64,000 nucleotides of DNA, taken from positions 66,162 to 130,161 of the forward strand of contig QWHN01000001.1 in NCBI GenBank assembly GCA_021404905.1, written 5' to 3'. This document shows positions 34,664-53,537 of this stretch, one piece after another. Position numbers and translations under genes: made by a program. This stretch comes from Candidatus Saccharibacteria bacterium CPR2 (GTDB lineage Bacteria; Patescibacteriota; Saccharimonadia; Saccharimonadales; QWHN01). The notes beneath the pieces are model-generated. The model saw nothing but the letters and a program-made list of their open reading frames with translations. It had not been told where the DNA came from and did not search any database. Numbering within the stretch: the stretch's first letter is position 1; each line of letters begins with the position of its first letter.

Positions 34664-35236
34664 TCAAATATATAGTTTATTGTTTTTTATATATCCGCCT
34701 ACCTCTTTAGCAACGTACTTACAGGCTGCGTCTTGTTTGATTTGTTCCCTTACTTTTGTAGAACTAACATCTGGATAAACTTTGGGCACAAACTTTACTC
34801 TTAGTTTTGTATCAATATTGTTGATTTTTGTTTTTTCATAATCATCAACTGCTACGATAAATGCAATCTGCTTGGCCAAACTATTTATATCACGCCATTT
34901 GTGAATATTGCCAAACACGTCGTTTCCCAGGATTAGTTTAAGATCTACGGCGTTATTTTTCTTAAAGATTGGGATTATCTCGCTTGCAGTATGATAATCC
35001 CCTTTTATTAATTTGAGTTTTTGAGTTGGTACGAGTAAATACGGGTTGTGTTTTGTTGCCAGCAGCGCCATAGCCAGCCTTTTTTCATACATTGACACGT
35101 TTGGTTTATATCTTGGCCTGCGTTCAGGAAGTATGTAAACTAAATCACAAATTTTTCGTTTAATAATTTCTTTAGCCAAAGCAATGTGGCCATTGTGTAT
35201 AGGGTCAAATGTTCCGCTGAATAATCCTAGTTTCAT
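34664..35236 (-). CDS. nadD: nicotinate-nucleotide adenylyltransferase
   Basis: MKLGLFSGTFDPIHNGH (HxGH) motif. ATG 35234-35236 overlaps the upstream stop in a TAATG arrangement. The track ORF extends to 35269. Confidence 0.85.
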   Translation of the reverse strand: MKLGLFSGTFDPIHNGHIALAKEIIKRKICDLVYILPERRPRYKPNVSMYEKRLAMALLATKHNPYLLVPTQKLKLIKGDYHTASEIIPIFKKNNAVDLKLILGNDVFGNIHKWRDINSLAKQIAFIVAVDDYEKTKINNIDTKLRVKFVPKVYPDVSSTKVREQIKQDAACKYVAKEVGGYIKNNKLYI

Positions 35237-36429
35237 TATCTGTTCACCTCTTTCTCGCAACTTGGGCATTTAATTTTTTTAGGCGTAACTATTGCATCTA
35301 CAGTATTTTTACAAAACGGGCAGGTTACGCATTTCATTGTGTTTGAAGAATTCTCAAAATTTGTTTCGCCTTCCTCTGCTATTCTCATACCGCAAACAAT
35401 AATTTCTGCTTTAGCCATGGCAGATTCATATAATTCTATAGCATGTGAAATTTGCCCCCTGTCCATATGGGCTTTAGCCAGTTTCAGGTAATCACTGGCT
35501 GGATTTCCAAGCGCGTAATTCGCATACTCTGGTTGGTTGAGGCAGATTGCACCAATGGTATTTAATAGATATTTTTCATATTCTTTGAAGGCTTTAATCC
35601 CATTTGGATAAAGACGGGCGATATTTATCAACTGATCAGCCATCACTATTATTTCAGATTTCACCTTTTCTTCGCGATATTTTGATATAGCTCTTACATT
35701 TTCATGAGTAACGCTAAAATTATTATTTTCACTTCCAAATAATACATTTTTTTCCGTTAGTTTATCTAAAATTCGCGCGGCTTCCTCTACTTTGTTTATT
35801 TGATTCTTATCAACTAACATTGGCGCGCTTAACACTTCTAGATGCGTAGGGTTGGCACCAAGGTCATAGCCCATTGCATTATAAAATCTCGCGAAAAGCT
35901 GATTGTCGCTACCGCTCATATTCAGCTCTTCTGTTTTCCTGTCACCAAAATCATCTACCTCAACCCAGCGTAATTTATATTTACGATTATCTGGACGATA
36001 ACCATTATTTTTTGCGTCAAAATCAGACATTTCTTCAGGATACGGCGAAATTGTCAGTAGCGCGTGTCCTTTCAACCTGCCTGTTTTGTATAAATCTTCT
36101 ATTAACTCTTCTTCTTTTTGCTCAATGCGCCTGCGCTGAATTTCGACTGGGTGCTGGGCTGTATAAATCCCAGATTGTAACATATCTCGATACAAAACTC
36201 CGCCTATTTCAAAACCCTCATTTACTGGATTCCAACTGGATTCTATAACGGATAAATGACCATGTGATGTTAGCGCTTCAAAAATGGCCGTTCGGGCATC
36301 ATCAACAACATACCTATATCTTTCCGGAGTCGGCTTTTCTAAAAAACTTCGAGCAGAACCAAGAGCATCATGAACCTGAAGTTCTTTTAAATCGCCTTCT
36401 TGTTCCAAAACTGGGAGTCTACCCTCCAA
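35236..36429 (-). CDS. hypothetical protein with C-terminal zinc ribbon, translationally coupled to nadD
   Basis: 397 aa with CVTCPFC..x..CPSC at the C-terminus. TTG start, with AAGGAG 7 nt upstream. Confidence 0.65.
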   Translation of the reverse strand: MEGRLPVLEQEGDLKELQVHDALGSARSFLEKPTPERYRYVVDDARTAIFEALTSHGHLSVIESSWNPVNEGFEIGGVLYRDMLQSGIYTAQHPVEIQRRRIEQKEEELIEDLYKTGRLKGHALLTISPYPEEMSDFDAKNNGYRPDNRKYKLRWVEVDDFGDRKTEELNMSGSDNQLFARFYNAMGYDLGANPTHLEVLSAPMLVDKNQINKVEEAARILDKLTEKNVLFGSENNNFSVTHENVRAISKYREEKVKSEIIVMADQLINIARLYPNGIKAFKEYEKYLLNTIGAICLNQPEYANYALGNPASDYLKLAKAHMDRGQISHAIELYESAMAKAEIIVCGMRIAEEGETNFENSSNTMKCVTCPFCKNTVDAIVTPKKIKCPSCEKEVNR

Positions 36430-36702
36430 AATAAAACTCCTTTCCCAAGCGAGAAAGGAGCAATGCTATTCAAGTGCATAACAAGTCCCTGCTCGGGGAA
36501 AATCTCTAAGTCAATGTATCTGGCTTATCCAACTACTTTTGCCCTTCAACTTTTCTCAGAAGGGTAATTTCATCGAATTTACAGTTGCGGCACAGCGCAC
36601 GAATCCCCTAGAATGCTCCACAACACTATAATGCGAAGCAGGGTCACGTGACTTCCATTGAAATAGAGTTAATTTGTTAACTAACGTAGCTCGATTATAA
36701 CA
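36430..36702 (-). promoter_or_regulatory. long structured 5' leader (~260 nt) with extended -10 promoter and SD-sequestering hairpin/attenuator
   Basis: TGTTATAAT (reverse complement of 36694-36702). Long-range pairings CCCTGCT/AGCAGGG and GGGGA/TCCCC. Hairpin CCCTTC..GAAGGG. Terminal hairpin CTCCTTTC-tcgcttgg-GAAAGGAG, whose 3' arm contains the SD, followed by TTTTATTTT. Confidence 0.45.
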
Positions 36703-36724
36703 AAATTGTTTTGAAAATTATTAT

Positions 36725-37090
36725 CTATTTAAGAGTTGCTAGGGAAACTCCAACTATCAAAATCACTATACCCAATAGATTGACGGTACTGATGGAGTCT
36801 CCAAAAATCTTCCAGCCAACCGTCAGCATTAAGATTAGGGTCAACGGTATGGTAATCAATTGAATTGAACTTAGCTGGTACTTACTCAACATCCACATAT
36901 TAAGAATCGTGGCGCTAAGATAAAATACAATGCCCAGTATCAATGAAGGCGAAGTTAAAAATAATAGTATCTTCTTGCTGAATATAAAATCACTCGTTAG
37001 TGAGAAATGGTTTTTTTCGACAGCGACCTTCCAGAAAGCCTGCCCCAGCACAAGTTGCAAGGCAAAAATTAGCCCGTAAATATAGATCAT
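36725..37090 (-). CDS. small 4-TM EamA/SMR-like (DMT superfamily) membrane protein
   Basis: 122 aa from ATG 37090 (MIYIYGLIFALQ..), 1 nt after the upstream stop. The track's longer ORF (to 37243) would overlap the upstream gene. Confidence 0.6.
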   Translation of the reverse strand: MIYIYGLIFALQLVLGQAFWKVAVEKNHFSLTSDFIFSKKILLFLTSPSLILGIVFYLSATILNMWMLSKYQLSSIQLITIPLTLILMLTVGWKIFGDSISTVNLLGIVILIVGVSLATLK

Positions 37091-37091
37091 A

Positions 37092-39170
37092 TCAAATACC
37101 TTTGTCTCTATAATCTCGAGACTTATCAAGACCAGATTTCGGTTTAATGACAACCCCCGGTTTTTCTTGATTGGAGCCTCCATGTAATCGTTGGAGCAGC
37201 TCATCCAGCTCATTGGTCTTTGGGTTGACCGTATTACCTTCACTCGTTTTACCAGGTTGAACCGATAGTTTGCCGGCAGGGCGTATTTTCACAAGAATAT
37301 ACCAACTGGCCACCGCCACAACCAATATTGTGAGTGTGACACCCGCTGTTATTATTAGACTGCCAGATTTTTCTGTTTCTGACGCCGGGATATTGAAAAC
37401 AAAACTTTGAGTTTCAACTAATGTGTTATTGTCAATATTTATATCATTTAACAGTCCAAGTTTATCTTCAATATTTATTTGCTGTGAGTGTTCAGCATCA
37501 CCAATTTTTACTTTTATAGTATGTAGACCTGGAGATACATTATTAAATATCGCCTGCCCCTGCTCGTCAGTCGTTGTTGCCCGAGGGTCAGAAAATAGTA
37601 TGGCTCGCGCTTTAGTAACCGGTTTTCCGTCGCTACCTTGAATTTTTACTGTAATTTTGTATCCTTTTGTGACAAGCTGCATAATATCGCTAACCGTTTC
37701 ATTGCCATTGGCATCGATAGCTTTAACTCGATAGTAGTAAGTTTGCCCGGGTTTTAACAATTTTGGATCAAGTTCCAGCGCATGCTCGGTTTTGATTTCA
37801 TTAGAGCTTACATTCATTCCCAGCGACTGTGTGGGGCCATACTCGATAACCGCAGCTGTTGGTTCATCCGTAGACCAACTGATTGTGACTTTGCGAAAGC
37901 TCACAAGTTCCGGATGCAAACTTTGAATTTTCGGGGCGCCGGATACTTTTGGCTCAACGTTCACGGGAGCCATGTTTGTCTCGCCTGTATTGCTCGATAC
38001 CGCCTCAAATATTTTTTCGAATGTATCGTCTGTAGATACTACTGTTTTTGTTTGATTAGTATTTTTATTTTCGTCACTGGTTGAGGGTGGAGGAGGTACA
38101 TTGCCCGACGCGGGCGCGGTAAATGTAACTTTTGAATTACCTAAATTCTTTAAGACATTTTCGTTGGTAGAACTGCTAAGTAATACTGAATCTTGTTCTA
38201 ACGTTAAATCAGAACTTCCCGAGTCGGAGAGAGCATAGAAAGTAACTTTTGCAACTGTTATATTACCCTCTAGAGTTTGGCCCATGCTTTTACCCATGTT
38301 AATAGTTAAAACTCCGTTCGATACGTCTTGATTCGCCGCGATATCAAAGCTACTACCAGCATTATTGGTAGATACATATTGCAATAAACTGGAATCATAT
38401 TTAACAACAGCTCTGACCGTATTAACTTTATTGCTACCAGAGTTGCCAACTATGGTAAAACTTATGTTCCCGCCTTTTTCTACAGATCCGCTTGTTGGTT
38501 CAATCGACAACGAACCATCTACAACTGTACCCGGACTTGGCTCGGGTTCTGGCTCTGGTTCAGGTTCAGGCGTCGGTTCTGGCTCCGGTTCTGGCGTAGG
38601 CTCAGGATTTGGAGTTTGCGATACAATATTAAAATCAAAAGAACCCTTTATACTTAAAACGTTTTGGTTGGTATCGCTGCTAAGAGCTACAGAGTCATCA
38701 GCTATGTTTACTTTTGCTACTCCACTTTCGCCAATAACTTTAAATGTAATATTAGCCATGAAAACATTACCCGTTTGCGCAGAAATAGAGCCTAGAGCGA
38801 TCCTGACGTCACCATTACCTCCAGACTCATGCGCCTTAATATCAAACGCGCTACCATTTGTATCTATAGATACAAATTCAAGTTTGCTGTTGTCATAAGT
38901 AAGATGAGCATCTACGGCATTAATGGATTCATCGCCAGTATCAAGATTAAGAGCTACGGTAGCGCTATCATTATTATTTACTGTGGGCGTAGAAGAACTA
39001 ACGTTTATTGCCGTATTTTCTCCCGCCCAGCTCTGCAATATGATATAGCCAATAACAGCTAGGGTAAGCATAAATATTGCTAGCAACGCCGCACTAAAGG
39101 TATTCTTAGGGTTTTGAGTGAACTTGGATTTTACAGACTTATCTTTTGACACCGGATGTTTTTTGATCAT
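37092..39170 (-). CDS. scaffoldin-like surface protein: signal anchor, 2 cohesin-like modules, PE/PT linker, FN3, Ig-like (CarboxypepD_reg-like) domain, C-terminal TM, cytoplasmic tail
   Basis: Cohesin-like ..AVDAHLTYDNSKLEFVSIDTNGSAFDI..ANITFKVIGESGVAKVNI, with a second copy ..VVKYDSSLLQYVSTNNAGSSFDI..AKVTFYALSDSGSSDL. Linker PNPEPTPEPEPEPTPEPEPEPEPEPSP. FN3 VTISWSTDEPTAAVIEYG. TM segment LIITAGVTLTILVVAVASWYILV. Confidence 0.75.
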   Translation of the reverse strand: MIKKHPVSKDKSVKSKFTQNPKNTFSAALLAIFMLTLAVIGYIILQSWAGENTAINVSSSTPTVNNNDSATVALNLDTGDESINAVDAHLTYDNSKLEFVSIDTNGSAFDIKAHESGGNGDVRIALGSISAQTGNVFMANITFKVIGESGVAKVNIADDSVALSSDTNQNVLSIKGSFDFNIVSQTPNPEPTPEPEPEPTPEPEPEPEPEPSPGTVVDGSLSIEPTSGSVEKGGNISFTIVGNSGSNKVNTVRAVVKYDSSLLQYVSTNNAGSSFDIAANQDVSNGVLTINMGKSMGQTLEGNITVAKVTFYALSDSGSSDLTLEQDSVLLSSSTNENVLKNLGNSKVTFTAPASGNVPPPPSTSDENKNTNQTKTVVSTDDTFEKIFEAVSSNTGETNMAPVNVEPKVSGAPKIQSLHPELVSFRKVTISWSTDEPTAAVIEYGPTQSLGMNVSSNEIKTEHALELDPKLLKPGQTYYYRVKAIDANGNETVSDIMQLVTKGYKITVKIQGSDGKPVTKARAILFSDPRATTTDEQGQAIFNNVSPGLHTIKVKIGDAEHSQQINIEDKLGLLNDINIDNNTLVETQSFVFNIPASETEKSGSLIITAGVTLTILVVAVASWYILVKIRPAGKLSVQPGKTSEGNTVNPKTNELDELLQRLHGGSNQEKPGVVIKPKSGLDKSRDYRDKGI

Positions 39171-39252
39171 TGATTAACACCAACCTTCAACATTGAATAT
39201 TCTTATGCTTAAGTATGAGGTACCATTGATTTATTTGTCAATGCGATATCTC

Positions 39253-39360
39253 CTAGGTCCAGTTACTAAGTAAGATAGATAAATCAAAGACATTCACGGT
39301 ACCATCATTATTTAAATCTGCCGATTCATTGCTGGATTGAAATTTCTGTGTAGTTCTATG
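39253..39360 (-). pseudogene. orphan dockerin half-repeat remnant (no start codon)
   Basis: Own translation gives ..KNHRTTQKFQSSNESADLNNDGTVNVFDLSILLSNWT*. It matches the second Ca-binding repeat of the two dockerins in this window. An in-frame TAA lies upstream and there is no ATG. Confidence 0.55.
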
Positions 39361-39379
39361 ATTTTTTTATTCATTTTAC

Positions 39380-40015
39380 TTAAGACCCCCATCTTGAAAG
39401 TAATGTGCTTAGATCAAAAATGTTGACTACCCCATCACCGTTAAGATCTGCTCGTTCATTATTGGATTGAGCTTGCCAACGCGATAACAATATAGAAAGA
39501 TCAAAAATATCTACTTTATTATCAGCGTTTATATCACCCAGCTTGGTGGGTTGCGGAGTTGATATAACACAATTATCTCCAAAATTCTCAGGGATACAAC
39601 TAGAATCTGAGGTTAAGATTAGCTTATCCAGTTTAACTCCGTTTTCATGGCCAATAATTTTAATTGAGTGGTTACCTTTTGCTAAATTAATGCGCGCCTT
39701 TTGAGAATTATTTCCGTTAGTGTAATCGACCCACGTCCAATTCGAGGAAGATATCGCCGTACTATCCCCCGCGAGCAAACATTGTTGGCCATCAATATCC
39801 ACATAAAGTCCATTATTATTACCCGAAGCCTGCATCCTAAGCCATATAATATAAGTAGCAGACGTCTCTATGCTCACATTATAACTAGCTTCACCTCCCT
39901 TTGCCGTACAAGCAGCGGCAGATACTGGCTTACCAGACAAAGTTAAAGTTAGTAATAATGTAAGACCCGTGCTAATAAAAATGTCAAATACAATTTTATT
40001 ATTCCCAAGTGTCAT
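39380..40015 (-). CDS. secreted CBM-like (CBM6/35-like jelly-roll) protein with C-terminal type-I-like dockerin
   Basis: Starts at ATG 40015 (MTLGNNKIVFDIFISTGLTLLLTLTL..), overlapping the upstream stop by 17 nt. Dockerin GDINADNKVDIFDLSILLSRW..ADLNGDGVVNIFDLSTLLSRWGS. Confidence 0.7.
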   Translation of the reverse strand: MTLGNNKIVFDIFISTGLTLLLTLTLSGKPVSAAACTAKGGEASYNVSIETSATYIIWLRMQASGNNNGLYVDIDGQQCLLAGDSTAISSSNWTWVDYTNGNNSQKARINLAKGNHSIKIIGHENGVKLDKLILTSDSSCIPENFGDNCVISTPQPTKLGDINADNKVDIFDLSILLSRWQAQSNNERADLNGDGVVNIFDLSTLLSRWGS

Positions 40016-41507
40016 CACTTTGCTCCTCAGGCTTATTTGGTTCAATAACATTTCCTGGCTTGTTAATCCTATCTCCCGGCAAACGTTCCAAAAGTGAATC
40101 CAGATCATCATCATTTTTTTGACTTGCCGCGTTGCTGGGAGGGTTGTCTATTATGGTTGGCTGAACGTCTTTTATGTTATTTTTTCTTTTTAACCTAAAG
40201 CTTGGCAGGCGCAAGCCTCCATTTTTATACTTTTTCCATACTAATAAACCACCACCACTTGCTATTACTAGAACCCCAATTACTAACAGTGCCAGTTGCA
40301 ATAAATTTGATTTCTTATTTTCAATTTCAATCCTAAAGTATTGAGGAGTAACATAGGCGTCGTCGGCAACATCTTGCCCTGTTTCTATACCAAGCGAATC
40401 CTCAATAAAAATAGTCTGGGTTATTTCGCTCCCATTTACTGACAGTGAAATTACGTGATCGCCAGGCGCCAAATCGTTGAAGGTAGCTTGAGCTTCATTG
40501 TTAAGTTGTGTTTTGCGTTCATTATCACTTCCCTTGTCAATTATTATTTCCGAACCGTTTAAGTTGTTTTTGTCTTTGCCAATAACTGCAATGATCGCCG
40601 TGTAGCCTCTTGTATACAAGTATCTGATACCGCTCGATGTTGTTGCGCCCTCCTGATTCACACTTTTGGCACGATAGTAATATTTTTGGCCTGATTTTGT
40701 CAGGGCCTTCTCAAAACTTAGTTCATGGTTTGTGCTTAATTCTCTAGCGGATACATTAAAACCAAGTTGTTTAGTGAGCCCATATTCAACGACTGAAGTT
40801 GCTTGGACATTAGTTCTCCAAGATATAGTTACATTTTTAAAGCTGACTTTTTTGGGAAACAAATCCAGCAGTTTAGGTGCTGTTGGGTCAGAAGGTACTA
40901 CCGTTATAGGTGTAAATGGCTCGGTACTAATTAATTCATCGGGATTATTGTTTGAACCTTGCTGCGTGTTTTGATTATTATTGCTATTGTCATTTCTCCC
41001 TAGATTAATCGATGTGCCGCTTTTAGCCCCTACTTCGAGCGTTTTGCCTTCGCTAACGGCTATTGATGGGTCGGTAAACTCGATATTGGTATTTACAGGG
41101 CCACTGCCGCTTTTTGCCTTAAAGGTTATTTTAGCAATCACTGCATCTCCCTTAACGAAAGGAGGCAACGAGCCTCTGGTAATTTGCACGCTTCCCGACC
41201 CTCCGGTTTCACGCACACCCACACCAAAGGCACTACTGGAACTATCTACTGAAACAAATTCAAGAAATGATTCGTCATACGTAAGTTTAATATCTACAGA
41301 ATCAACATCTTTGCTGTCACTATTTATTTTAGCTGTCAGTGTAACATTTTCGCCTTGCGCTACAGTTACTGAGCTTGGATCAAGATAGAAATTTACCCCT
41401 GCCGCGGCAATGCTCGATTTAGTTATTAACAAAACGGATAACAAACACAGTGCTATGCTAAGCAAAATTATTTTTATTTTTGCACCACTGTTCATAACCA
41501 ATAGCAT
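39999..41507 (-). CDS. scaffoldin-like surface protein paralog: signal, 1 cohesin-like module, FN3, Ig-like domain, C-terminal TM, cytoplasmic tail
   Basis: ..SVDIKLTYDESFLEFVSVDSSSSAFGV..AKITFKAKSGSGPVNTNI, VTISWRTNVQATSVVEYG, and TM segment LALLVIGVLVIASGGGLLVW. Domain order matches 37092..39170. Confidence 0.75.
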   Translation of the reverse strand: MLLVMNSGAKIKIILLSIALCLLSVLLITKSSIAAAGVNFYLDPSSVTVAQGENVTLTAKINSDSKDVDSVDIKLTYDESFLEFVSVDSSSSAFGVGVRETGGSGSVQITRGSLPPFVKGDAVIAKITFKAKSGSGPVNTNIEFTDPSIAVSEGKTLEVGAKSGTSINLGRNDNSNNNQNTQQGSNNNPDELISTEPFTPITVVPSDPTAPKLLDLFPKKVSFKNVTISWRTNVQATSVVEYGLTKQLGFNVSARELSTNHELSFEKALTKSGQKYYYRAKSVNQEGATTSSGIRYLYTRGYTAIIAVIGKDKNNLNGSEIIIDKGSDNERKTQLNNEAQATFNDLAPGDHVISLSVNGSEITQTIFIEDSLGIETGQDVADDAYVTPQYFRIEIENKKSNLLQLALLVIGVLVIASGGGLLVWKKYKNGGLRLPSFRLKRKNNIKDVQPTIIDNPPSNAASQKNDDDLDSLLERLPGDRINKPGNVIEPNKPEEQSDDTWE

Positions 41508-41601
41508 TATAGCATTATTGCATTAACTAGATATTCACAATCATCATCATAAGTTCCATTGTTATATTTCTTGGCATGAAATGGGTTTACAATAACTGTG
41601 G

Positions 41602-43053
41602 ATGAAAGACGAAATTCAAAAAGCATGGTTACAGTTAAAAGCTGTGGGAAAATTATCAAACATTATTAGAAACCACGGCTATGATGCATACATAATTGGC
41701 GGCGCCGTGCGTGATATATTACTCGGACATTTACCAAAAGATTTTGACATCGTAACTAATGCCAAGCCAGAAGAAATTGAAAAATTGCCGGGGCTTAAAA
41801 AATCAAAATTTAAAGATACGGCTCAAGCTTTTGGCGTAACCAGAGTAGTGCTGGAGATGTCGGATAACGGCACTTCACAAGACGTTGATATTGAGGTGTC
41901 GACATATAGAAAAGATGTTGAATCACACTTAGGACGCCAGTTAACAAAAGTTGAATTTTCTACTTTAGAGGACGATGTAGGGCGACGCGACTTAACAATC
42001 AACGCATTAGCCCTAGATCCAAATACAAATCAACTTATAGATTTGGTTGATGGAGTTAAGGATTTGGGAACCAAAACTATAAGATTTATAGGCGACCCTT
42101 TAAGCAGAATTCAAGAGGACCCTTTGCGCATTCTAAGAGCAATCCGCTTAAAAAATCAACTCGGGTTTCATTATGACAACCAAACAGAGTCAGATATCCA
42201 TAGAGCTGTAAAACAGGGTTTTGTAAAACAAATAGTAAGCGATCGGATTCAAACAGAATTAACGAGAATGTTGGTGCATCGCAATAGAATCTCAGCAATT
42301 TCGGATCTGGATTATTTTGGCATTATTAATGAAATAGTTCCAGAGTTACTTAATATGAAAGGTGTTCCCCAACCAAGTGAGTTTCATATGGAAGGAGACG
42401 TTTGGGAACATACTTTACTTGCTTTGCAACACTTGCCGGGCAAAGTAAGCTCCAGGCTGGTCTGGGCAGTATTGTTGCACGACATTGGAAAACCGGAAAC
42501 AATTGAAACTTCAGAAAAAACCGGAGATAGAATCCGGTTCAATAAGCACTATCTGGTTGGCGCGAAAATCGCGGAGCAAATACTAAAGAGACTGCATTTT
42601 AGCAACAAATTTATTAATGATGTGTACTGGATGATTGACAATCACATGGGCATAGATATGCTGCCAAGAATGAAACCATCGAAACAAAAGGCTTTTCTGT
42701 CTCACGGTGCTTTCTTAGACCTGTTTGAACTTCACAAAGCCGATGCGTACGCAGCCTGGAATAAACACAAAGATGGAACAATCGAAGTAGCCGAGCCAGA
42801 ATTTAATGAACTGGATGAATTATGGAAAAATTATTCGCAAAAAAACCATCGCGCGTCTTTGGATCTAAAAAATGATTTAGGCATTGATGGAGACTGGATA
42901 ATGCGACACTTCGGCATAAAGCCCGGTAAAAAATTGGGTGAAATTTTAAGTAAAGCAAATGACGCGTATATTGATGGAGATGTTGTAGACGAAAAAGAAT
43001 GCGAAGAATTTGTTGAAAAATTGCTAACCGTTCCAGTTACTAAGCATGATTGA
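41602..43053 (+). CDS. cca: CCA-adding tRNA nucleotidyltransferase with HD domain
   Basis: GGAVRDILLG..DFDIVT, RRDLTINALA and a C-terminal HD (LLHDIGK) region. Confidence 0.85.
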   Translation: MKDEIQKAWLQLKAVGKLSNIIRNHGYDAYIIGGAVRDILLGHLPKDFDIVTNAKPEEIEKLPGLKKSKFKDTAQAFGVTRVVLEMSDNGTSQDVDIEVSTYRKDVESHLGRQLTKVEFSTLEDDVGRRDLTINALALDPNTNQLIDLVDGVKDLGTKTIRFIGDPLSRIQEDPLRILRAIRLKNQLGFHYDNQTESDIHRAVKQGFVKQIVSDRIQTELTRMLVHRNRISAISDLDYFGIINEIVPELLNMKGVPQPSEFHMEGDVWEHTLLALQHLPGKVSSRLVWAVLLHDIGKPETIETSEKTGDRIRFNKHYLVGAKIAEQILKRLHFSNKFINDVYWMIDNHMGIDMLPRMKPSKQKAFLSHGAFLDLFELHKADAYAAWNKHKDGTIEVAEPEFNELDELWKNYSQKNHRASLDLKNDLGIDGDWIMRHFGIKPGKKLGEILSKANDAYIDGDVVDEKECEEFVEKLLTVPVTKHD

Positions 43054-45555
43054 AAGATCGAATACGTTGACTGTACCGTCTTTATTTATGTCCGAAGTAG
43101 TATCACTGGAGTTCCACTTTGAAAGCAGTATGGATAGATCAAAAATATCTACTTTCTCATCGCTATTCAGGTCTCCAGAGATAGACGCCGGTGTATTGTC
43201 GATGGTTACGACGATGAAAGCACTAACCCGCATATTACCAGCAGCGTCATACGCTCGAGCTGTTAGATTGTAATTGCCATTCTCGATTGTTGCTGAATTC
43301 CAAGTTGTAAAGTAGGGTGACCGGCTAACTTCCGCCACCTTGACATTACCAAGCCAGAATTCAACGAGAACTACACCTACATTATCACTAGCTTCGGCAA
43401 TCAAATCGGTTTGACCAAATATAGTTTCTCCTGATGATGGCGAGACTATGCTTACGCTCGGCTTGGCTGTATCTGGTAGCGGCGGTGATACTACTGGCAT
43501 TGAAACAATTGGTCCCGCGTCGCCGGACGCAGTTTTCACTCCTTGTTGGTCTACATATCTAGCCCTGACTCTGAAATCATAAGATTGGTTATTGGTGAGA
43601 CCATCTACAACCAACGACTTATTCGTGGTTGGGGTAGACCACATCCAACTATCACTGGTTTGGGACCTGTAACTTACCATGTATTCAACGGGTAGCGTGT
43701 TCCGACTATCGTTCCAGGTAAGCGAAACCTGCCCATCGCCCGGAGTAGCACTAAAATCCGAAGGCGCATATATTGTCGGAGCGGGGGCGGATCCGTCTGT
43801 CCTTCCTACATGAACCCCGTTTCCATTTAGAGCCGTGTACAAATAATTATCCGAGGAACTCGCAAGTCCGAACGGAAAAGCATCTCCCCCCCTATAATAG
43901 TCATCAGCAACATCAGTAGCGGTTGTCGCTGCCGGTAGATCAACTTTATACATTCTAGCGCTTAACGCTGATGTCCCCAGACCACATGCATACAGAGCGT
44001 CATTTGTAAGTGTTATCGGACCCGGGTTTAAGGCTCCGGTAATTTTTGTTGGGCTAAGGTTGGATGCTGTATGCGCATTGTCGACTTTGTATAATCCATT
44101 TTGACTGGAAATAAACAATCTACCAACGGTATTTGGGTCGGCAATTACGTATCCAGTCATCTCATTCATGCTACTTTGGCTCCATATTCTAACCCAAGAA
44201 GCTCCGTAGTCATTTGATCGATATACACCCTTGGCAGGATCAAATGCATAAACGTATTGAGACCCTGGTACCCACGAGAATCTTCCAGTTTTCGCGACTC
44301 TAGCAGTATTGAATGCGTCACCACTGGCTTTTTGCCATGCACCATTACCAACTTTACGCCAAATTCCTGCACCGCTTAGTGCTCCGTTTTGATCCTGAGA
44401 GTCATAAGCGACAGCTGCTAATATTACACGATTATTAGACGCTTCTTGACCAACAGCCACTCCAACTGCTCTATTGCCATTAGTGCTAGCCAAACTCAAA
44501 CCTTCATCCACCCATGAGCCTCCACTGGTTGGGTTCTGGATAGATAAAACCTCTCCGCTTTGATTCTTATCCCTATGACCACCAGCTAAATAAACAGTAG
44601 ATGGATTCGTGGAAGCATCAACAGCTATATCATATCCAGTATTAAATACGCCAGGATTTTTAATATCAACGTTTTGCATATTATCCGTCGAATATAAGAA
44701 AACCCAGTCAGTATTTGCTACGAACACAGCCCCGGGATTGTTTGGATCGGTCGCGATTGCCCTGTTTATCGTCACCCCAAGCCCTTGAACAGTCGGATAC
44801 CAATTCACCCCACCATCCGTTGACCTCCATACTCCAGATCTGCCCGCAACATAGATATTATTACTATCGTTAGGATCAATTGCGATCTGGGCAGCAACAA
44901 AATAATTGCCCCCTACCATCACGCCTCTATTGTGCTCTGAAAGCAACCAAGTTGAATTAGTCCCAGCAACCTCATAATGGATATTACTTCTATTGGAAGT
45001 CAGGGACTGCCAACTACTCCCACCATTAGTTGATTTCATGAGATTGATCCCATCGCCATTCATCTCCGGTTCGAACACTGCACCGATTATTAGCACATGA
45101 TTTTGCCCATTCGCGTATCCGTCGATCGATTCCCATCTTGCCACGGTGGTATTCACTCCACTATTTATCGCCTGCCAACTACTCCCACCATTAGTTGATT
45201 TAAAAATTCCCGCCCGCCCAGCGACAATATAAACAGTGCTATCAATAATCTTTATTTCCTCGACTATAGATGGAGCACTAGAAAGCTTACTAAACGAACC
45301 TTGGCCTCTAGCATTTGTTGTCTTCCATATGCCATCGTTATATGTCCCGACATAAAGCACATCTGGATTAGCCGGATCCATCGCGATTGATCTTAAATAC
45401 TTGCCCTTAATACTTGGGTCGAGATACGTCCACGTTGCTCCACCATTGGTCGATTTCATCACCCCATCATAAAAAGTCGCGACATAAATGATATTATTTG
45501 TTTCATCTAAGGCGATTAAGTTGCCTGTGGATCTGGGATGCTCACTGTTACTCAC
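43024..45555 (-). pseudogene. C-terminal fragment of an interrupted BNR/Asp-box (Sortilin-Vps10/GH74-like) beta-propeller + FN3 + Ig-like + dockerin surface protein
   Basis: No signal peptide. It begins at a GTG inside a repeat unit. Asp-boxes STNGGATW, STNGGSSW (x2), STDGGVNW and SNDYGASW. Dockerin GDLNSDEKVDIFDLSILLSKW..SDINKDGTVNVFDLSIMLSNWNG. The matching N-terminal fragment is at 55943..56494. Confidence 0.7.
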
Positions 45556-45613
45556 GACATTATTATTGCCTCCCTATTGTAATGCGAGTCAGAACTGCAA
45601 TTATAGGTGAAGG

Positions 45614-46120
45614 TTAATTCTGTTCCTCGGGATATGTACTCATTATGGCGAAAATATCGGAAATTAACCTTAATGGAGTATTACTGATGGTGTGTAGTGA
45701 ATAACCTTGAATTCGCTTAATGTCTGCCTTTGTTATTACGCCTGGACTACTATAGATAATTAAAGGTATCTGCTTAGACTTAAGGGTATCGAAAAGTTTA
45801 CCAAATGAATCTCCTGTTGGCTCGTATGCTAAAACTATCAATCTATACTCATTATCAATCAGGTCTGCACTTCTAGAGTCTGCTGCCTTTAAGTCGACAT
45901 CAAAGAAGCCAGTATTCCTAATTAGGAGTGTTTCGTGAGCCATATCAGTACTTGCTGAAGGTACAATCGCTACTGGTCTTTTAATGTTCTTGAACAGTCG
46001 TTTTTCCTTCTTGCGGAAAAACTTTAGATAAACAAAGAAACCAACCAGCCACACTATGACTGGCCACACAAAAACAAGTAGTGTTATTAAATCTGCTGAT
46101 GTTCCAAGGTCTACTGACAT
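45614..46120 (-). CDS. small membrane protein: N-terminal TM segment + ~120-aa alpha/beta domain of unknown family (candidate effector)
   Basis: ATG 46120 (MSVDLGTSADLITLLVFVWPVIVWLVGFFVYLKFF..) with TAGGAG 6 nt upstream. It lies 8 nt after the NTase stop and is the last gene of the operon. Confidence 0.6.
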   Translation of the reverse strand: MSVDLGTSADLITLLVFVWPVIVWLVGFFVYLKFFRKKEKRLFKNIKRPVAIVPSASTDMAHETLLIRNTGFFDVDLKAADSRSADLIDNEYRLIVLAYEPTGDSFGKLFDTLKSKQIPLIIYSSPGVITKADIKRIQGYSLHTISNTPLRLISDIFAIMSTYPEEQN

Positions 46121-46128
46121 AAATACTC

Positions 46129-46890
46129 CTACCATATTATCTGATTCCAGCTGCCTGCTCGCAAGCATTCCGCTGCTTTATTAGCTATCAAACGCTTTTC
46201 ATCTTGAGTTAACTCGTTAGCAACATTGTTGCTTGCGTTTCCAGGATCGATAAGCTGAGTGGTATGAATTGTATTTTGAAGTGAGTCTAAAACAACGATC
46301 ATATTATTTGCGGTCGTATAACGATTGTGGCCACTTAAAGCATTAATTGTAAAAATCTCAAGAGGAAATGAAGGAAATTCCAACCTGTGTCGATGACGCC
46401 AAATTTTTAACAGTCGTATCTCATCGTGTCTATTACTTCCATTGATATGGCTAATATGTCTGTCGATGTTGGTTTTTTTCCAGGTGTTTTGTTTGCGGCT
46501 GTAAATGCTGTGGTCAGTAGTTGCGGAACCTTGCTTACGACCAGGAACCAAATCTACCTTGATGCCATTTAGATTAACGCCTATAGATACATTCTGCTTT
46601 GTTACTTGATATCCGCGCTCCCTTAGGTAGTCGTATAAGTTTTGGTATACACGAGCCAATGGCCATTCTGAAGCATTAAGACTTGGGCTTAGTGAAATAA
46701 ATAGATCAACATCAGTGGATAATCGAACTGCTGTGCCTTTCGCAAATGAACCTGAAGGTTTAATTTCAAGTAGGTACCCGTTTGCCCATTCACGGATCAC
46801 GGGAGATAGTGTCTGTATCGCTGTCACCAAAGCTATTGAGCTGGGCGCCTGAGCAGTGATTACGGACCGTAGGTAGGTGTCATTGTCCAC
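46129..46890 (-). CDS. OAS/cGAS/CD-NTase-like (SMODS-type) nucleotidyltransferase
   Basis: GSFAKGTAVRLSTDVDLFIS (G-S-x11-D-x-D), IKVDLVPG, WKKTNIDRH and LLKIWRHRHRLEFPSFPLEIFT. A likely GTG start at 46890 lies 1 nt after the hsdMS stop. The track start is TTG 46935. Confidence 0.65.
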   Translation of the reverse strand: MDNDTYLRSVITAQAPSSIALVTAIQTLSPVIREWANGYLLEIKPSGSFAKGTAVRLSTDVDLFISLSPSLNASEWPLARVYQNLYDYLRERGYQVTKQNVSIGVNLNGIKVDLVPGRKQGSATTDHSIYSRKQNTWKKTNIDRHISHINGSNRHDEIRLLKIWRHRHRLEFPSFPLEIFTINALSGHNRYTTANNMIVVLDSLQNTIHTTQLIDPGNASNNVANELTQDEKRLIANKAAECLRAGSWNQIIW

Positions 46891-46891
46891 A

Positions 46892-49342
46892 TCAACCCCA
46901 TATATCCGCAATTCTATTTTGGGTCTTCTGCTCAAATTTGTGGATTAGTTTTCGATTTAAGTTCAGGATTGTCCGCTCTTCCAAAATCGACTTAATTATC
47001 TCCTTTTGCACCCCGACTGGTGGGAGGGGTATTTCTAATTCAGCGACTCTTTGTAAGCCTAGTTTTGGAACGCCCACTCCAGCAGTTAGTCTTCTAATTT
47101 GAGATTGAATAGTGGGTTCCTGTAGGACTATGGCGAGATAATCTTTGTCTATTGTATCGTTGCGGATAACTAGTTTTGCGGCATTTTCAGTTAAATAGGA
47201 TCCGTCCAGATCAGGCGGAACGACTCCCGTTTTTCCGATGGTCCCTGCTATTGATATGTATACATCATTTGAGCTAATGGTATATCTTTCAATTTCTTTA
47301 CGAACGTCATCGTCGATAAATTTAATGCTAGTTTTGTCAATACCGCCTTCGTTCATATCAACAACTCTAATGTATGGGTATTTGGTAGGTTCATCGGAAA
47401 ATGATTTACCTTTCGGAATTCGTTTTCCACCTTTAATATCTACTAACTCAGACAGTCTAATTACCTCCCACTCTGGGTTAATAGGTAAGCTCGGTGTCCA
47501 ATTATCAATTGCTTGCTGAGCACCTTCAATAACTTTTCTGTATGAACTAAGTTCGTCAGCTATCTCTTTTTGGATATCAATAGTAGGGAGAGGGATTTTG
47601 AAGGGTTTAAGATCTTCTGTTTTCATTGAGACATTGGCCGCGCCGCGCATTAATTTGGCAAGATCATCCTTCACAGATGATAAGATCCAGTAAAGATACC
47701 TGCCATCAAGATCGTCACCTGGTATTACAGCTGCCAACAAGTTTGCGAGTGCAAATTTTCCTTTGAAATAATGAACTCTTTTTATGCTTGCGTGGCCGTG
47801 GCCTGTTGCCGAAATGAGCGGAATACATACTGCTTCTGCATCAAAATCAAAATGTGTAGAAGTTTTAAACTCTTGGGCAGTTAGAATTAAGGGATAATCA
47901 CCTGCTTCTGTTTTTGTGCTCGAAGACTTGCCTTTTTCAATTCTTGCAACGTCACCCAAACTAATTAGGGGGTATTCAGAATCCAAGGGCGCTACGGACA
48001 AATACTTATTACCCACCAGGGAGATATCATCAGAAGTTAGAACTGAGTCTTTCGAGACCTTATGTGCTAGTTTGCACGTAATGTGATTATTAGGTTCTTG
48101 TTGAAATTCTTTTATCACCTTCAATGCATCAATGAGGTCATTTTCCTTAATTGGCTTTCTCACCGCTCCAAGTGAAACCCCTACTTGTTTTACTTCTGTA
48201 AATAGTATATCGGTGCTGCGTTTTGCGAGTTCCTTGTCTAGAAATATAATCGAGGTCTTTACTCCAGAGTATGGGAGAAATACTCCGGAAGGTAGTGAGA
48301 CGACCGCATAAAGATAATTCTCAACCAACATCTTCCTGAGTTGCTTATATGCGTTACCAGATTGGAAAATGATTCCCTCTGGTACGATCACACCCGCTCG
48401 ACCACTTGTAGATAAGTGCTCGGCAATATAATCAGTAAACAGGACCTCTGCACGATTTGCTTGAACACCAAAACGCTTATGGGGACGAATACCACCCTTT
48501 GGAGTCATAAACGGTGGATTTGCTAAGATAACATCGAAACTATCATCCCAGCGATCGTCGCTAGTTAAAGAGTCGTATTCATAAATATGCGGTTGTGGAA
48601 AGCCGTGCAAGTACATATTGACTCTTGATAGTTTTACCATATCAGGCGAGATGTCATAGCCAACAATACTATTAGCTAGTCGCTTTCGTTCGTCAGGGGT
48701 TAGCCTTGTTTCATCGTTGGGTTTACCACTTTCGTCCTTACCATCGTGAGAGTTAAGGATGTGCTTGTAAGCTGAAATTAAGAACCCTGCCGTACCACAC
48801 GCTGGGTCGAGTATTCGATCAGTCTTTTTTGGGTCAACTACTGAAACGATGAAATCAATGATGTGGCGTGGCGTACGGAACTGCCCAGCATCACCTTGAC
48901 TACCAAGTACGGATAACAGGTACTCAAATGAGTTGCCCAACTCTTCACTATGATGATAAGTAAATTCGTTGATTTGCTTTAGGAACAAACTTAGAGTCTC
49001 GGGGTCACGATAAGGCAGATATGCGTCCTTAAATATATCTCGGAATAATTGTGGTATGTGCGGATTTTGAGAGAGTTTTGAAACCGCTTCTACATAGAGA
49101 TCAAGGCGCTCCAAACCGCCAAGCTTTGGATCCATTAACTTTGACCAAGAATACTTTTCGTAACCGTTATTGAAGAACTGTGGCTTACCCCCAAGTTCAA
49201 TAGCTTCTTGATCCATATCGTCCATAAATTTGTAGATAAGGGCGTTAGTGATCTGATCAACCTGTGCCTTAGGGTCTGGAACTTTGCCTACAAGAATGTC
49301 TCTGGCGGAATCGATTTTTCGTTTAATATCAGTCGTCAGCAT
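46892..49342 (-). CDS. hsdM: Type I R-M fused methyltransferase-specificity subunit (HsdM N-terminal ~440 aa + two-TRD HsdS)
   Basis: LDPACGTAGFL (motif I) and ILANPPFMTPKGG (motif IV, N6-adenine). These are followed by TRD1 (ISLGDVARIEKGKS..), a central conserved helix (LPTIDIQKEIADELSSYRKVIEGAQQAIDNW), TRD2 (IRLSELVDIKGGKR..) and a distal helix (LPPVGVQKEIIKSILEE..). Confidence 0.85.
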   Translation of the reverse strand: MLTTDIKRKIDSARDILVGKVPDPKAQVDQITNALIYKFMDDMDQEAIELGGKPQFFNNGYEKYSWSKLMDPKLGGLERLDLYVEAVSKLSQNPHIPQLFRDIFKDAYLPYRDPETLSLFLKQINEFTYHHSEELGNSFEYLLSVLGSQGDAGQFRTPRHIIDFIVSVVDPKKTDRILDPACGTAGFLISAYKHILNSHDGKDESGKPNDETRLTPDERKRLANSIVGYDISPDMVKLSRVNMYLHGFPQPHIYEYDSLTSDDRWDDSFDVILANPPFMTPKGGIRPHKRFGVQANRAEVLFTDYIAEHLSTSGRAGVIVPEGIIFQSGNAYKQLRKMLVENYLYAVVSLPSGVFLPYSGVKTSIIFLDKELAKRSTDILFTEVKQVGVSLGAVRKPIKENDLIDALKVIKEFQQEPNNHITCKLAHKVSKDSVLTSDDISLVGNKYLSVAPLDSEYPLISLGDVARIEKGKSSSTKTEAGDYPLILTAQEFKTSTHFDFDAEAVCIPLISATGHGHASIKRVHYFKGKFALANLLAAVIPGDDLDGRYLYWILSSVKDDLAKLMRGAANVSMKTEDLKPFKIPLPTIDIQKEIADELSSYRKVIEGAQQAIDNWTPSLPINPEWEVIRLSELVDIKGGKRIPKGKSFSDEPTKYPYIRVVDMNEGGIDKTSIKFIDDDVRKEIERYTISSNDVYISIAGTIGKTGVVPPDLDGSYLTENAAKLVIRNDTIDKDYLAIVLQEPTIQSQIRRLTAGVGVPKLGLQRVAELEIPLPPVGVQKEIIKSILEERTILNLNRKLIHKFEQKTQNRIADIWG

Positions 49343-49344
49343 AT

Positions 49345-51864: not shown

Positions 51865-52013
51865 ATATATTTACATTTTCATAGTATTTGCCAAATTATT
51901 ATTTGATATTGCAAATTACATATTTGATTATAACGGTAATCACAAGAATTCTCGATGTTAAAAATGAAGAATTTGATGATTATGGTCATCCTTTATGAAC
52001 TATAATAAAAGTT

Positions 52014-52391
52014 ATGAGTACTAAAGGGCGAAAATTATGGGATGGTAAAAGCCAGGATATTGTTATCCCGAAACTCGAAGCAGCATTTGCCGTGGATGCA
52101 ACCGTTACCGAAGCCTGTTTTTACGCAGATATTAGTACATCTTCGTATTATCGGTTTGTTGAGAAAAACTCCCAATTTCGGGACAGATTTGCACAACTTC
52201 GGAATAAGCCAGTTTTATTAGCACGCCAAACTGTGGTAAATGCTCTGAAAACCGATCCTCATCTAGCATTCAGGTATCTTGAGAAGAAGCGAAAACTAGA
52301 GTTTGGAAAAACGGTACAGATTGAACGACAAACTACCGAATACGAAAAATTATCTGACCAGCAGCTACACGAACTAATTTTTGGGAAGTAG
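52014..52391 (+). CDS. HTH protein (phage terminase-small-subunit/phBC6A51-like HTH)
   Basis: ..VTEACFYADISTSSYYRFVEKNSQFRDRF.. pattern, in an element context. Confidence 0.5.
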   Translation: MSTKGRKLWDGKSQDIVIPKLEAAFAVDATVTEACFYADISTSSYYRFVEKNSQFRDRFAQLRNKPVLLARQTVVNALKTDPHLAFRYLEKKRKLEFGKTVQIERQTTEYEKLSDQQLHELIFGK

Positions 52392-52595
52392 CTTTTCTGG
52401 TTTTAACTGCAAAGCCTTGGCAAGCTTGTACATAGTTGTAAGGGTTGGATTACGTTCACCCCTCTCGATACCACCTATATAAGTACGGTCAAGGCCGGCA
52501 TTATCTGCAAGCTCAGATTTATTTAAACCAAGAAATTCTCTTCTTTTTTGAACCTGTTTTCCAAAGTTGATTAATAATTTACTGTTTTCTCTCAT
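52374..52595 (-). CDS. XRE-family (cI/Cro-like) HTH transcriptional regulator
   Basis: LGLNKSELADNAGLDRTYIGGIERGERNPTLTTMYKLAKAL. Confidence 0.85.
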   Translation of the reverse strand: MRENSKLLINFGKQVQKRREFLGLNKSELADNAGLDRTYIGGIERGERNPTLTTMYKLAKALQLKPEKLLPKN

Positions 52596-52640
52596 AACCT
52601 ATAATGTATAACAAGTGGTGACTATAGACCACACAAAATA

Positions 52641-53228
52641 ATGAATATGAATAGTCAAGATAAGCATTTTACTAGTCGCTCGGCTCGATCGAGGCAAAAA
52701 AGAGAAGTCTTACTAGCGAGACCCGATTTTATTCGTGATACAAAAGATTTACACGAACGAAAACTCTCCAAAGAACAGCTTGAAAAAGAAGTAATTGTGC
52801 TTATTGAGAAGTATAAGTTGGGACCAAGTTGGATTTTTGGGCTAGTTGAATATATTGACCGTCTTGACCCGACATATCTTATAAGACTTCCTCGTCCAGC
52901 AGTTGAAATCCGTACTAATAAAGAAACTGGGATAAATGAGCTTTGGATCAGGATTAATGAAGATACTACGCTTGAAGACATCAAACAACGCTGGTCTTTC
53001 ATAAAGTGGTATCAAGAAAAACTGGACTATACCAAACAAAAGAAGTTTCAGCCTAACGATAAAGCCGTGCTAGAACGAAATAAATTTGTCTATGAACTAC
53101 GAGAAAATGGCTTAAGCCACCAACAGATTGCAGACAAATTAAATGATAAATACCCCGACGAAGTCTTTGTCTACAGCGATATTGCAACAATGCTACGTAA
53201 CTACAAGCGACAAACAGGCATTAATTAA
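52641..53228 (+). CDS. hypothetical protein with C-terminal HTH-like segment
   Basis: ..ENGLSHQQIADKLNDKY.. at the C-terminus. Divergent from the XRE gene. Confidence 0.5.
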   Translation: MNMNSQDKHFTSRSARSRQKREVLLARPDFIRDTKDLHERKLSKEQLEKEVIVLIEKYKLGPSWIFGLVEYIDRLDPTYLIRLPRPAVEIRTNKETGINELWIRINEDTTLEDIKQRWSFIKWYQEKLDYTKQKKFQPNDKAVLERNKFVYELRENGLSHQQIADKLNDKYPDEVFVYSDIATMLRNYKRQTGIN

Positions 53229-53237
53229 GCTTAATTC

Positions 53238-53537
53238 TTGCCTTATACGGGCGGACAGATACTTGAGAAGATAGTCTCGGTATCTGCTATGAGAATTAAT
53301 TATTACGATCAATATTCAGCAAATGATCTAGCACTTGTTTCTGTGCTTATCTACTTAGGTTTTGCCGTTGAGCGAGTTGAAAAAGACGTCAAAGGCAAGG
53401 CTACTTTCTACTTTTATCGTAATTCTGAGCTTGATCAAGCGGTCCAAGAATACTGGTCTGGAGATATTTCCGTTGAGCCAAGATCCTATTTTGATGCCAT
53501 TAAGCGAACAAAAACAAGGATCTATTCGGAGACGTGA
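53238..53537 (+). CDS. hypothetical protein (DUF5659-like pattern); start TTG 53238 or ATG 53289
   Basis: ..LALVSVLIYLGFAVERVEKDVKGKATFYFYRNSELDQAVQEYW... Confidence 0.45.
   Translation: MPYTGGQILEKIVSVSAMRINYYDQYSANDLALVSVLIYLGFAVERVEKDVKGKATFYFYRNSELDQAVQEYWSGDISVEPRSYFDAIKRTKTRIYSET

Follow-up and report, generated by a model that had tools for sequence, protein, structure and literature searches.

A putative non-cellulosomal cohesin–dockerin surface-display system in a Saccharibacteria bacterium

The locus and its scaffoldins

The DNA considered here, a window of 64 kb (64,000 nucleotides) from Candidatus Saccharibacteria bacterium CPR2 to whose positions all coordinates refer, carries between 36.7 and 41.5 kb four closely packed genes on the minus strand: scaB, docS, scaA and a gene for a small membrane protein with four transmembrane (TM) segments. 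ScaA and ScaB are membrane-anchored scaffoldins bearing cohesin modules, DocS is a small secreted dockerin protein, and a second dockerin gene, encoding a BNR-propeller protein and split by a mobile element, lies beyond a divergent gene for a CCA-adding enzyme (Table 1). An initial annotation, made from the sequence alone, had described a minimal, membrane-tethered, cellulosome-like display cluster in a non-clostridial context resembling the candidate phyla radiation (CPR). The last point agrees with the Saccharibacteria host, and the AspRS encoded in the window is 100% identical to that of CPR2, with its next relatives in Saccharimonadales (~72% identical).

The two scaffoldins are identical to MCE7936287.1 (ScaA) and MCE7936289.1 (ScaB), both of which are annotated as "hypothetical protein". 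They align with each other over 488 aa (BLASTP E 3e-53, 29% identity) and are thus paralogs, as initially proposed, with the first module of ScaA aligning with the ScaB cohesin at E 5e-18. Against the Pfam Cohesin model (PF00963, gathering cut-off 24.1 bits), the ScaB cohesin scores 49 bits (E 9e-13), and the ScaA modules score 28.1 bits (Coh1) and 31.4 bits (Coh2) when each is scanned alone; neither is reported at E ≤ 0.1 when full-length ScaA is scanned against Pfam. A profile of the cohesin region of the family matches solved cohesins, namely 1g1k/2vn5 of C. cellulolyticum (E ~1e-5), NagJ and those of R. flavefaciens. An AlphaFold2 (AF2) model of ScaB built on 63 family sequences, which replaced a discarded 5-sequence model with a pLDDT of 47.6, reaches a pLDDT of 80.6, with domain cores, including residues 40-170, above 90. 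Its top Foldseek match in the PDB is 2w1n, the Coh-FN3 pair of C. perfringens GH84C (E 3.3e-12), and it superposes on 1g1k with a TM-score of 0.81 and an rmsd of 2.1 Å over 148 columns; further cohesin matches are 2vn5, 6kgf, 4dh2 and, at a TM-score of 0.70, the archaeal 2xdh. The cohesin fold is a flattened, nine-stranded beta-sandwich (jelly roll); the ScaA modules, 30-37% identical to ScaB, probably share it. With all three modules above the Pfam cut-off and the ScaB model superposing on solved cohesins, the cohesin assignment holds, and the possibility that the modules are unrelated Ig/FN3 folds is contradicted by Pfam, the family profile and the structural matches alike.

In each scaffoldin, hydrophobicity scanning reveals two TM-like segments, one N-terminal and one C-terminal, the latter followed by basic residues and a hydrophilic tail of 60-80 aa. 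The predicted topology, with an N-terminal signal segment (signal peptide or signal anchor), a single C-terminal TM helix and a tail in both proteins, is thereby borne out, as are the two cohesins of ScaA with a (PE/PT)n linker between them. The FN3 and Ig-like domains proposed to lie between cohesin and membrane appear as two beta-sandwiches at the corresponding positions of the ScaB model and recur in relatives (among the 37 family members scanned, CarboxypepD_reg is matched in 22 and Pur_ac_phosph_N, an FN3-like match, in 10), but the hidden Markov model (HMM) matches of the window scaffoldins themselves to fn3/Pur_ac_phosph_N and CarboxypepD_reg lie below cut-off (E ~5e-4 to 9e-4).

The tails of both scaffoldins share a motif, in which the L-D-x-L-L and K-P-G-x-V-I-x-P columns are invariant between the ScaA and ScaB lineages; in the model, the ScaB tail is disordered apart from a short helix at LDSLL. 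Of the 42 family members whose tails reach 45 aa or more, 22 contain the strict form PGx[IVLT][IVLT]xP, which invariably lies 4-15 residues short of the C-terminus; it has 0 occurrences in 23,665 aa of family ectodomain. A second group of tails ends in P(K/R)NEPK(L/M)xV(V/F)R. A sortase- or exosortase-type signal was considered for the motif and ruled out, since it lies 40-70 residues past the TM helix and not before it. The motif lends indirect support to the earlier idea that the scaffoldins may be coupled to something cytoplasmic.

Table 1. Features of the cohesin–dockerin locus and its surroundings
Feature	Position in window	Strand	Length or residues	Remarks
scaB	39999-41507	-	502 aa	TM-anchored single-cohesin scaffoldin; start in relatives is Met5
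ScaB signal segment			11-29	hydrophobicity scan
ScaB cohesin			~36-170
ScaB low-complexity linker			175-196
ScaB FN3-like			~200-299
ScaB Ig-like			~301-395	CarboxypepD_reg-type
ScaB TM helix			402-428	405-423 by hydrophobicity
ScaB cytoplasmic tail			429-502
ScaB tail motif	40038-40109	-	~467-490	DDLDSLLERLPGDRINKPGNVIEP; invariant columns with ScaA lineage
docS	39383-40015	-	211 aa	small secreted dockerin protein
DocS dockerin	39383-39538	-		C-terminal
Cargo-gene remnant	39280-39341	-	last ~30 codons	second dockerin repeat and stop; encodes SNESADLNNDGTVNVFDLSILLSNWT followed by the stop
Promoter-like TTGACA-18-CATACT	39241-39212	-		directly upstream of scaA
scaA	37092-39170	-	692 aa	TM-anchored two-cohesin scaffoldin
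ScaA signal segment			27-45	hydrophobicity scan
ScaA Coh1	38592-39023	-
ScaA (PE/PT)n linker	38529-38618	-	~185-214
ScaA Coh2	38121-38528	-
ScaA FN3-like	~37671-37934	-
ScaA Ig-like	~37401-37661	-
ScaA TM helix	~37296-37364	-	603-625	603-621 by hydrophobicity
ScaA tail	37140-37214	-		ELDELLQRL...KPGVVIKP
Small 4-TM membrane protein	36725-37090	-	121 aa	from ATG at 37090
Terminator-like hairpin	36436-36461			3' of the 4-TM gene
CCA-adding enzyme gene	41602-43053	+		divergent; between scaffoldin block and 843-aa dockerin ORF
BNR-dockerin, C-terminal piece	43024-45555	-	843 aa	converges on CCA-enzyme gene
BNR-protein dockerin	43027-43176	-
BNR-dockerin, N-terminal fragment	55943-56494	-		ORF translation; signal peptide and first propeller blades
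Integrated element	45560-56040 (ends approximate)		~10.5 kb	splits BNR-dockerin gene
CBASS 1-TM effector	45614-46168			PADLOC 1.3e-17
CBASS cyclase	46129-46935			PADLOC PDLC00803 3.5e-83
Type I restriction-modification, fused M+S	46892-49342			PADLOC MTase_I 1.1e-92
Type I restriction-modification, R	49345-51864			PADLOC REase_I 2e-59
Large serine recombinase	54442-56043	+		XisF/Ccr-like

Dockerin proteins and their cargo modules

Both dockerins of the window exceed the Pfam Dockerin_1 (PF00404) cut-off of 22.9 bits, that of DocS at 35.8 bits and that of the BNR protein at 28.8 bits; the DocS dockerin also reaches 29.1 bits against NCBIfam dockerin_GC (cut-off 29), and the cargo proteins of relatives score 25.7-36.5 bits against Dockerin_1. 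Each contains two intact tandem repeats of ~22 residues with an EF-hand-like calcium loop of the form D-x-N-x-D-x3-(D/N)-x2-D (D1, N3, D5, D/N9, D12), DINADNKVDIFD and DLNGDGVVNIFD in DocS and DLNSDEKVDIFD and DINKDGTVNVFD in the BNR protein, so that their initial description as canonical duplicated dockerins is upheld; a helix probably follows each loop. Across unrelated cargo, repeats at the same position differ at few of 20 residues, and within each window dockerin the two repeats are very similar, for which reason a dual binding mode is possible. Sequence searches of the PDB match the DocS dockerin to the dockerins 2y3n, 5lxv and 1daq, and the window dockerins to 2jnk/2ozn.

DocS consists of a signal segment, a Cys-bracketed, beta-rich module of ~115 aa and the dockerin, and is 100% identical in aa sequence to its ortholog in L001 (L-numbers denote loci of relatives). 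Its beta-rich module, initially called a CBM-like jelly roll, scores 23.8 bits against GH115_C, near the cut-off of 24.1, and an ortholog matches CBM_6 at E 0.004; the resemblance to CBM6/GH115_C is therefore retained as a near-threshold match, whereas the label itself falls below cut-off. No glycoside hydrolase (GH) catalytic family is found at curated thresholds in the cargo of the window or of L001-L006 by Pfam or PDB sequence search. Support for a glycan-binding role of the cargo is weak.

Gene pairing in the wider family

The family was delineated from an exhaustive profile search, which gave 9234 matches at E ≤ 1e-3, many of them giant FN3-repeat proteins. Among the best 150 of these 9234, which were examined, 63 proteins are at most 800 aa long, and ~60 combine a signal segment and a tail with a single TM helix at ~350-450; Pfam Cohesin is matched in 20 of the 37 members scanned. 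A word-index protein search, with ScaB and with a 37-sequence profile, recovered only three close full-length relatives and FN3 look-alikes, a scan of a species-representative genome collection only FN3 look-alikes in unrelated phyla, and a scan of metagenome contigs with a narrower alignment three loci.

Nine distant loci have usable flanks, eight of them belonging to distant members (~25-30% identity) and the ninth to a third paralog of the CPR2 genome. In eight of the nine (L012, L013, L015-L020), a dockerin gene directly abuts the cohesin-TM gene, with a gap of -26 to +32 nt. The usual partner is a Big_7-dockerin protein of 330-530 aa, and the cargo of distant loci consists mostly of Big_7 arrays and an S8 protease with FG-GAP repeats. 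Four dockerin genes occur at one locus (L013), whereas L015 (105-5400) has a two-tier arrangement of an S8 subtilase-FG-GAP-dockerin protein, a cohesin-Big_7-FN3-dockerin adaptor and a TM-anchored cohesin protein. Such recurrent, often overlapping gene pairing is the strongest indirect argument for a joint role of these cohesins and dockerins. The third CPR2 paralog, MCE7936458.1 (which clusters with L010 5240-6751), is flanked by the genes for EF-P and for a methyltransferase of the TlyA/FtsJ type; the S6-SSB-S18 genes and an operon for type IV pili are close by.

Two side observations concern the wider family. Another protein, P0166 (552 aa), combines an N-terminal cohesin with a C-terminal dockerin. 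The cohesin-TM/dockerin pair of L012 (8001-16154) lies beside or within an hrcA-grpE-dnaK heat-shock cluster, and likewise in L018 (6667-13229), where the order is HrcA, GrpE, Coh-TM, Big_7-Doc, DnaK.

Close relatives and cargo turnover

Three close lineages from Logan assemblies share the locus, with ScaB identities of 98% (L006), 84% (L001) and 69%. The 84% and 69% relatives have two cargo genes more than the window, both of the X-FN3-dockerin type: the first, of 657 or 578 aa, separates the CCA gene from scaB, and the second, of 1055 or 1070 aa, separates docS from scaA; the 657-aa cargo has a GH115_C/CBM6-like module near threshold. The window has kept a remnant of the second gene, whose translation is identical to the end of the 1055-aa gene of L001, indicating that this cargo gene was deleted here. 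By blastn, the window lacks ~3.1 kb (L001 12164-15245), and at the junction ~12 nt are common to both alignments, suggesting microhomology; the same scar is present in the 98% relative L006.

Other parts of the locus have changed as well. In L006, the slot of the BNR protein (6019-8472) is occupied by an intact 817-aa gene with the same signal peptide and an FN3-Big_7-dockerin end that is 63% identical, while the ~500-aa middle is unrelated, being a BNR propeller in the window, whereas L006 has a module of unassigned family together with one more Big_7. DNA identity to L001 over 36401-43022 is mosaic: 99-100% in docS and scaA, 84-95% in the CCA gene and 73-75% in the core of the ScaB ectodomain (40320-41219), which points to recent exchange of a docS-scaA block, diversification of ScaB, or both. 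Given deletion, payload swapping, element insertion and mosaic identity, the locus is a hot spot of recombination and cargo change. The description as minimal needs qualifying, as the window copy is partly degraded, with two cargo genes of a close relative gone (one leaving the remnant) and the BNR gene split.

The split BNR-dockerin gene and the inserted element

The 843-aa open reading frame (ORF) comprises a BNR/Sortilin-type beta-propeller, FN3, Big_7 and the dockerin (Pfam Sortilin-Vps10 1.9e-15, Big_7 1.3e-15; with 6p2k and the BNR glycosyl hydrolase 3b7f as weak PDB matches). The ORF lacks a signal peptide, and 18 nt upstream of its GTG there is an in-frame stop. As the initial annotation had stated, a mobile element interrupts the gene, and the missing piece is found beyond the ~10.5-kb insertion as an N-terminal fragment with the signal peptide MFSKIRINKNSAVNFLFALAFAGSMSV and the Asp-box STDSGNTW. 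The intact L006 gene at the equivalent position shares this signal peptide (39% identity over 98 aa, E 8e-15). The genuine sequence of the fragment probably ends near residue 150 (~56043), where the serine recombinase gene overlaps its end. The element is absent from L001 and L006, in which the response-regulator genes lie close to the CCA gene. The BNR cargo gene does not share an operon with the scaffoldins, being located beyond the divergent CCA-enzyme gene.

Besides the recombinase, restriction-modification and CBASS genes, the element carries small phage-like genes, including one for a helix-turn-helix protein, and is itself a defence island, borne by a large-serine-recombinase element that has inserted into a Saccharibacterium gene for a surface protein. 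The cargo slot is flanked by genes for two response regulators and for a histidine kinase with a PAS domain (56642-60229, plus strand).

Transcription context and neighbouring genes

A 17-nt overlap between scaB and docS had been proposed as translational coupling; it holds if docS starts at the ATG at 40015, and gene calls on relatives use a GTG one codon earlier, which gives 20 nt. The 4-TM gene starts 1 nt past the scaA stop. Its product, described at first as DMT/SMR-like, does show four hydrophobic segments in a hydrophobicity scan, but its family similarity is confined to sub-threshold Pfam matches to TMEM234 of the DMT clan (cut-off 30.1 bits), with E 0.026 and 15 bits for the window protein and E 5.2e-4 and 20.5 bits for the ortholog in L005; no match was found in NCBIfam or the PDB.

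Next to the 4-TM gene, a conserved 397-aa protein (35236-36429, minus strand) with a C-terminal CxxC...CxxC zinc ribbon and no Pfam/NCBIfam match is encoded, and its gene keeps a syntenic position in all relatives, with the locus on one side and the gene for nicotinamide mononucleotide (NMN) adenylyltransferase on the other. Elsewhere in the window, three tRNA genes with CAT anticodons lie inside 10 kb (574-650, 6669-6743 and 10500-10575), presumably encoding initiator, elongator and lysidine-modified tRNA-Ile.

Comparison with known systems

In model-based comparison, the closest solved relative of the locus cohesins is the non-cellulosomal Coh-FN3 of C. perfringens, where GH84C/NagJ Coh-FN3 pairs with a NagH-type dockerin (2w1n, 2ozn, 2jh2). 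As in ScaB, FN3 directly follows the cohesin there, and, as in the system proposed here, the modules bring together secreted proteins that are not cellulolytic; however, the cohesins of this Firmicute pathogen are on soluble secreted enzymes and lack a TM helix, a cytoplasmic tail and an Ig-like stalk. The anchoring scaffoldins of cellulosomes (SdbA/OlpB/Orf2p of C. thermocellum, with S-layer homology (SLH) domains, and ScaE of R. flavefaciens, with sortase anchoring) resemble those described here in presenting one or a few surface cohesins to docking partners, and the ScaB cohesin fold matches the type I cohesins 1g1k, 2vn5, 6kgf and 4dh2. Their anchors are SLH domains or LPXTG, whereas here a C-terminal TM helix with a 60-80 aa tail is used, and, compared with cellulosomes, the locus lacks a primary scaffoldin with a carbohydrate-binding module (CBM) of the CBM3 type and its cargo is not recognisable as cellulases. 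The locus dockerins have I/V-F at repeat positions 10-11; type I dockerins of C. thermocellum have S-T there.

For some Firmicutes (H. luporum, C. cibarium and Lachnoclostridium sp. MSJ-17), proteins that bear one cohesin and a C-terminal TM helix have been predicted and discussed as possible non-SLH anchoring scaffoldins (PMC11557425), so that the anchoring principle is not new. These genome-predicted proteins of a different phylum, to judge by their description, share that principle and have no FN3-Ig stalk, conserved tail motif or paired dockerin gene (PMC11557425). More widely, non-cellulosomal cohesin and dockerin modules occur with few copies per genome (Peer et al. 2009, as cited in PMC10066038), an example being the cohesin of Archaeoglobus fulgidus (2xdh), which likewise comes from a non-cellulolytic organism and is the archaeal match of the ScaB model. 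Unlike such scattered modules, the genes considered here form a linked pair with a defined membrane-anchored architecture recurring across many lineages.

Within Saccharibacteria, the dockerin-domain protein SEML1_0315 was found in a transposon screen to be essential for growth of Southlakia epibionticum on its host (PMC10633639), and its gene adjoins those for a response regulator and a PAS kinase (PMC10633639, supplement). This position resembles the BNR-dockerin slot of the window, an analogy that is suggestive only. The supplementary tables of that paper, as far as accessible, list no cohesin or dockerin Pfam accessions, and no paper found in the searchable literature describes the cohesin partner family; for Saccharibacteria, that literature mentions SEML1_0315 as the sole dockerin protein. 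Another Southlakia protein, SEML1_0890, was considered as a family member and ruled out, as it has only 195 aa.

Proposed mechanism and alternative explanations

We interpret the locus, with a probability of about 0.78, as a non-cellulosomal cohesin–dockerin surface-display system of a Saccharibacteria bacterium. ScaA and ScaB would be exported via their N-terminal signal segments and each held in the cytoplasmic membrane by one C-terminal TM helix, with the FN3-like and Ig-like stalk raising the cohesins off the membrane. Secreted, Ca2+-binding two-repeat dockerin proteins, namely DocS, the BNR-propeller protein and, in relatives, other X-FN3-dockerin proteins, would plug into the cohesins and thus be retained at the cell surface. 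We infer this binding, like the choice of partners, indirectly, the gene pairing being the basis for binding. The core unit would be the coupled pair of a cohesin-TM gene and a dockerin gene, to which further cargo may be added, or from which it may be swapped or lost, between strains. The cargo modules (weakly CBM6-like, BNR propeller, Big_7 arrays, FG-GAP repeats, subtilase) suggest that the most likely targets for binding or processing by the cargo are glycans or proteins, whether of a host cell or of the surroundings, and the tail motif is probably recognised by a cytoplasmic partner through which the scaffoldin is positioned or regulated. This interpretation retains the membrane-tethered display proposed initially, in agreement with the signal and C-terminal TM segments of the scaffoldins, the signal peptides of the dockerin proteins (with signal segments on DocS and the BNR N-terminal fragment) and the abutting genes.

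Several observations weigh against it. In PDB sequence searches, the cargo proteins matched in their FN3, Big_7 and dockerin parts alone, and their N-terminal payloads have no confident family assignment; and the third CPR2 paralog has no dockerin gene nearby, so that not all family members are paired in cis. In addition, the locus may be partly decayed, because DocS is the sole intact dockerin protein within the window.

Among the other explanations, a true small cellulosome, whose scaffoldins would array dockerin-bearing GHs and CBMs for the breakdown of plant or microbial polysaccharides by a sugar-fermenting Saccharibacterium, is unlikely. The BNR/Sortilin propeller does weakly resemble GH74-type and BNR glycosyl hydrolases, the near-threshold GH115_C/CBM6-like module is present in both DocS and the 657-aa cargo, and a GH5 gene (L017) and a GH114 gene (L012) lie near family members. 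Yet the lack of recognised GH catalytic families in the cargo, together with the predominance of Big_7 arrays and the FG-GAP-bearing S8 protease at distant loci, argues otherwise, and the scaffoldins show no CBM (Pfam, NCBIfam), no SLH match and no sortase anchor, with three cohesins per locus at most. The earlier term "cellulosome-like" thus remains apt for the display architecture but not for a strict cellulosome, for which a recognised dockerin-GH, a CBM3 scaffoldin and an SLH or sortase anchor would be expected.

It is less probable still that the scaffoldins are TM receptors or signalling devices and not passive display anchors, with the TM helix passing on the binding of a dockerin ligand or host surface outside to a partner that reads the tail motif. 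Conservation of this motif in paralogs and distant members would fit such signalling, as would the two response regulators and PAS histidine kinase that adjoin the locus in the window and close relatives, an arrangement shared by the essential Southlakia dockerin protein (PMC10633639). Two-component genes were not found beside distant family members, however, tails do not exceed 40 aa in about one third of members, the strict motif is missing from half of the long ones, and no recognisable signalling domain is present in the tail; moreover, signalling would be compatible with display and does not exclude it. Least credible is the explanation that the proteins are independent adhesins, with the cohesin-like modules as beta-sandwich spacers, the dockerins as unpaired Ca-stabilised ends and their adjacency due to shared regulation, for although non-cellulosomal modules often have no demonstrated partners (a matter of general knowledge, and Peer et al. 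2009 as cited in PMC10066038) and the third paralog stands alone, the gene pairs are close or overlapping in most distant loci, the L015 neighbour bears both modules, as adaptor scaffoldins do, and the locus dockerin repeats are near-alike across unrelated cargo, with Ca-loop residues intact.

Significance

New in the cohesin–dockerin display system proposed here are the transmembrane format with its conserved tail motif, the recurrence of the gene pair, the wide spread of the family, probably among uncultured bacteria with small genomes, and the turnover of cargo. To our knowledge, the means by which ultrasmall epibiotic bacteria recognise and attach to their hosts are largely unknown, type IV pili being the main attachment factor implicated so far. 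It is conceivable, albeit doubtful, that the family and its paired dockerin genes serve Saccharibacteria and related ultrasmall bacteria generally as an exchangeable apparatus for attachment to surfaces, in which the scaffoldin is positioned or regulated from inside via PGxV(I/V)xP and strain-specific cargo sets the host surface that is bound. If true, dockerin proteins such as the essential one of Southlakia epibionticum would find in this family the cohesin partner that has been missing for them. A membrane-anchored cohesin family with linked dockerin genes in any case offers candidate partners for that protein, for which PMC10633639 names none.

That cargo changes so fast between near-identical strains suggests that the system is selected to follow changing targets. 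An intracellular partner could be sought by way of the conserved cytoplasmic motif, and the modularity of the parts allows specific pairings to be tested. More generally, cohesin–dockerin assembly would be extended to transmembrane scaffolds and to the phylum of this bacterium, where both scaffoldin genes of the window are annotated as hypothetical proteins.

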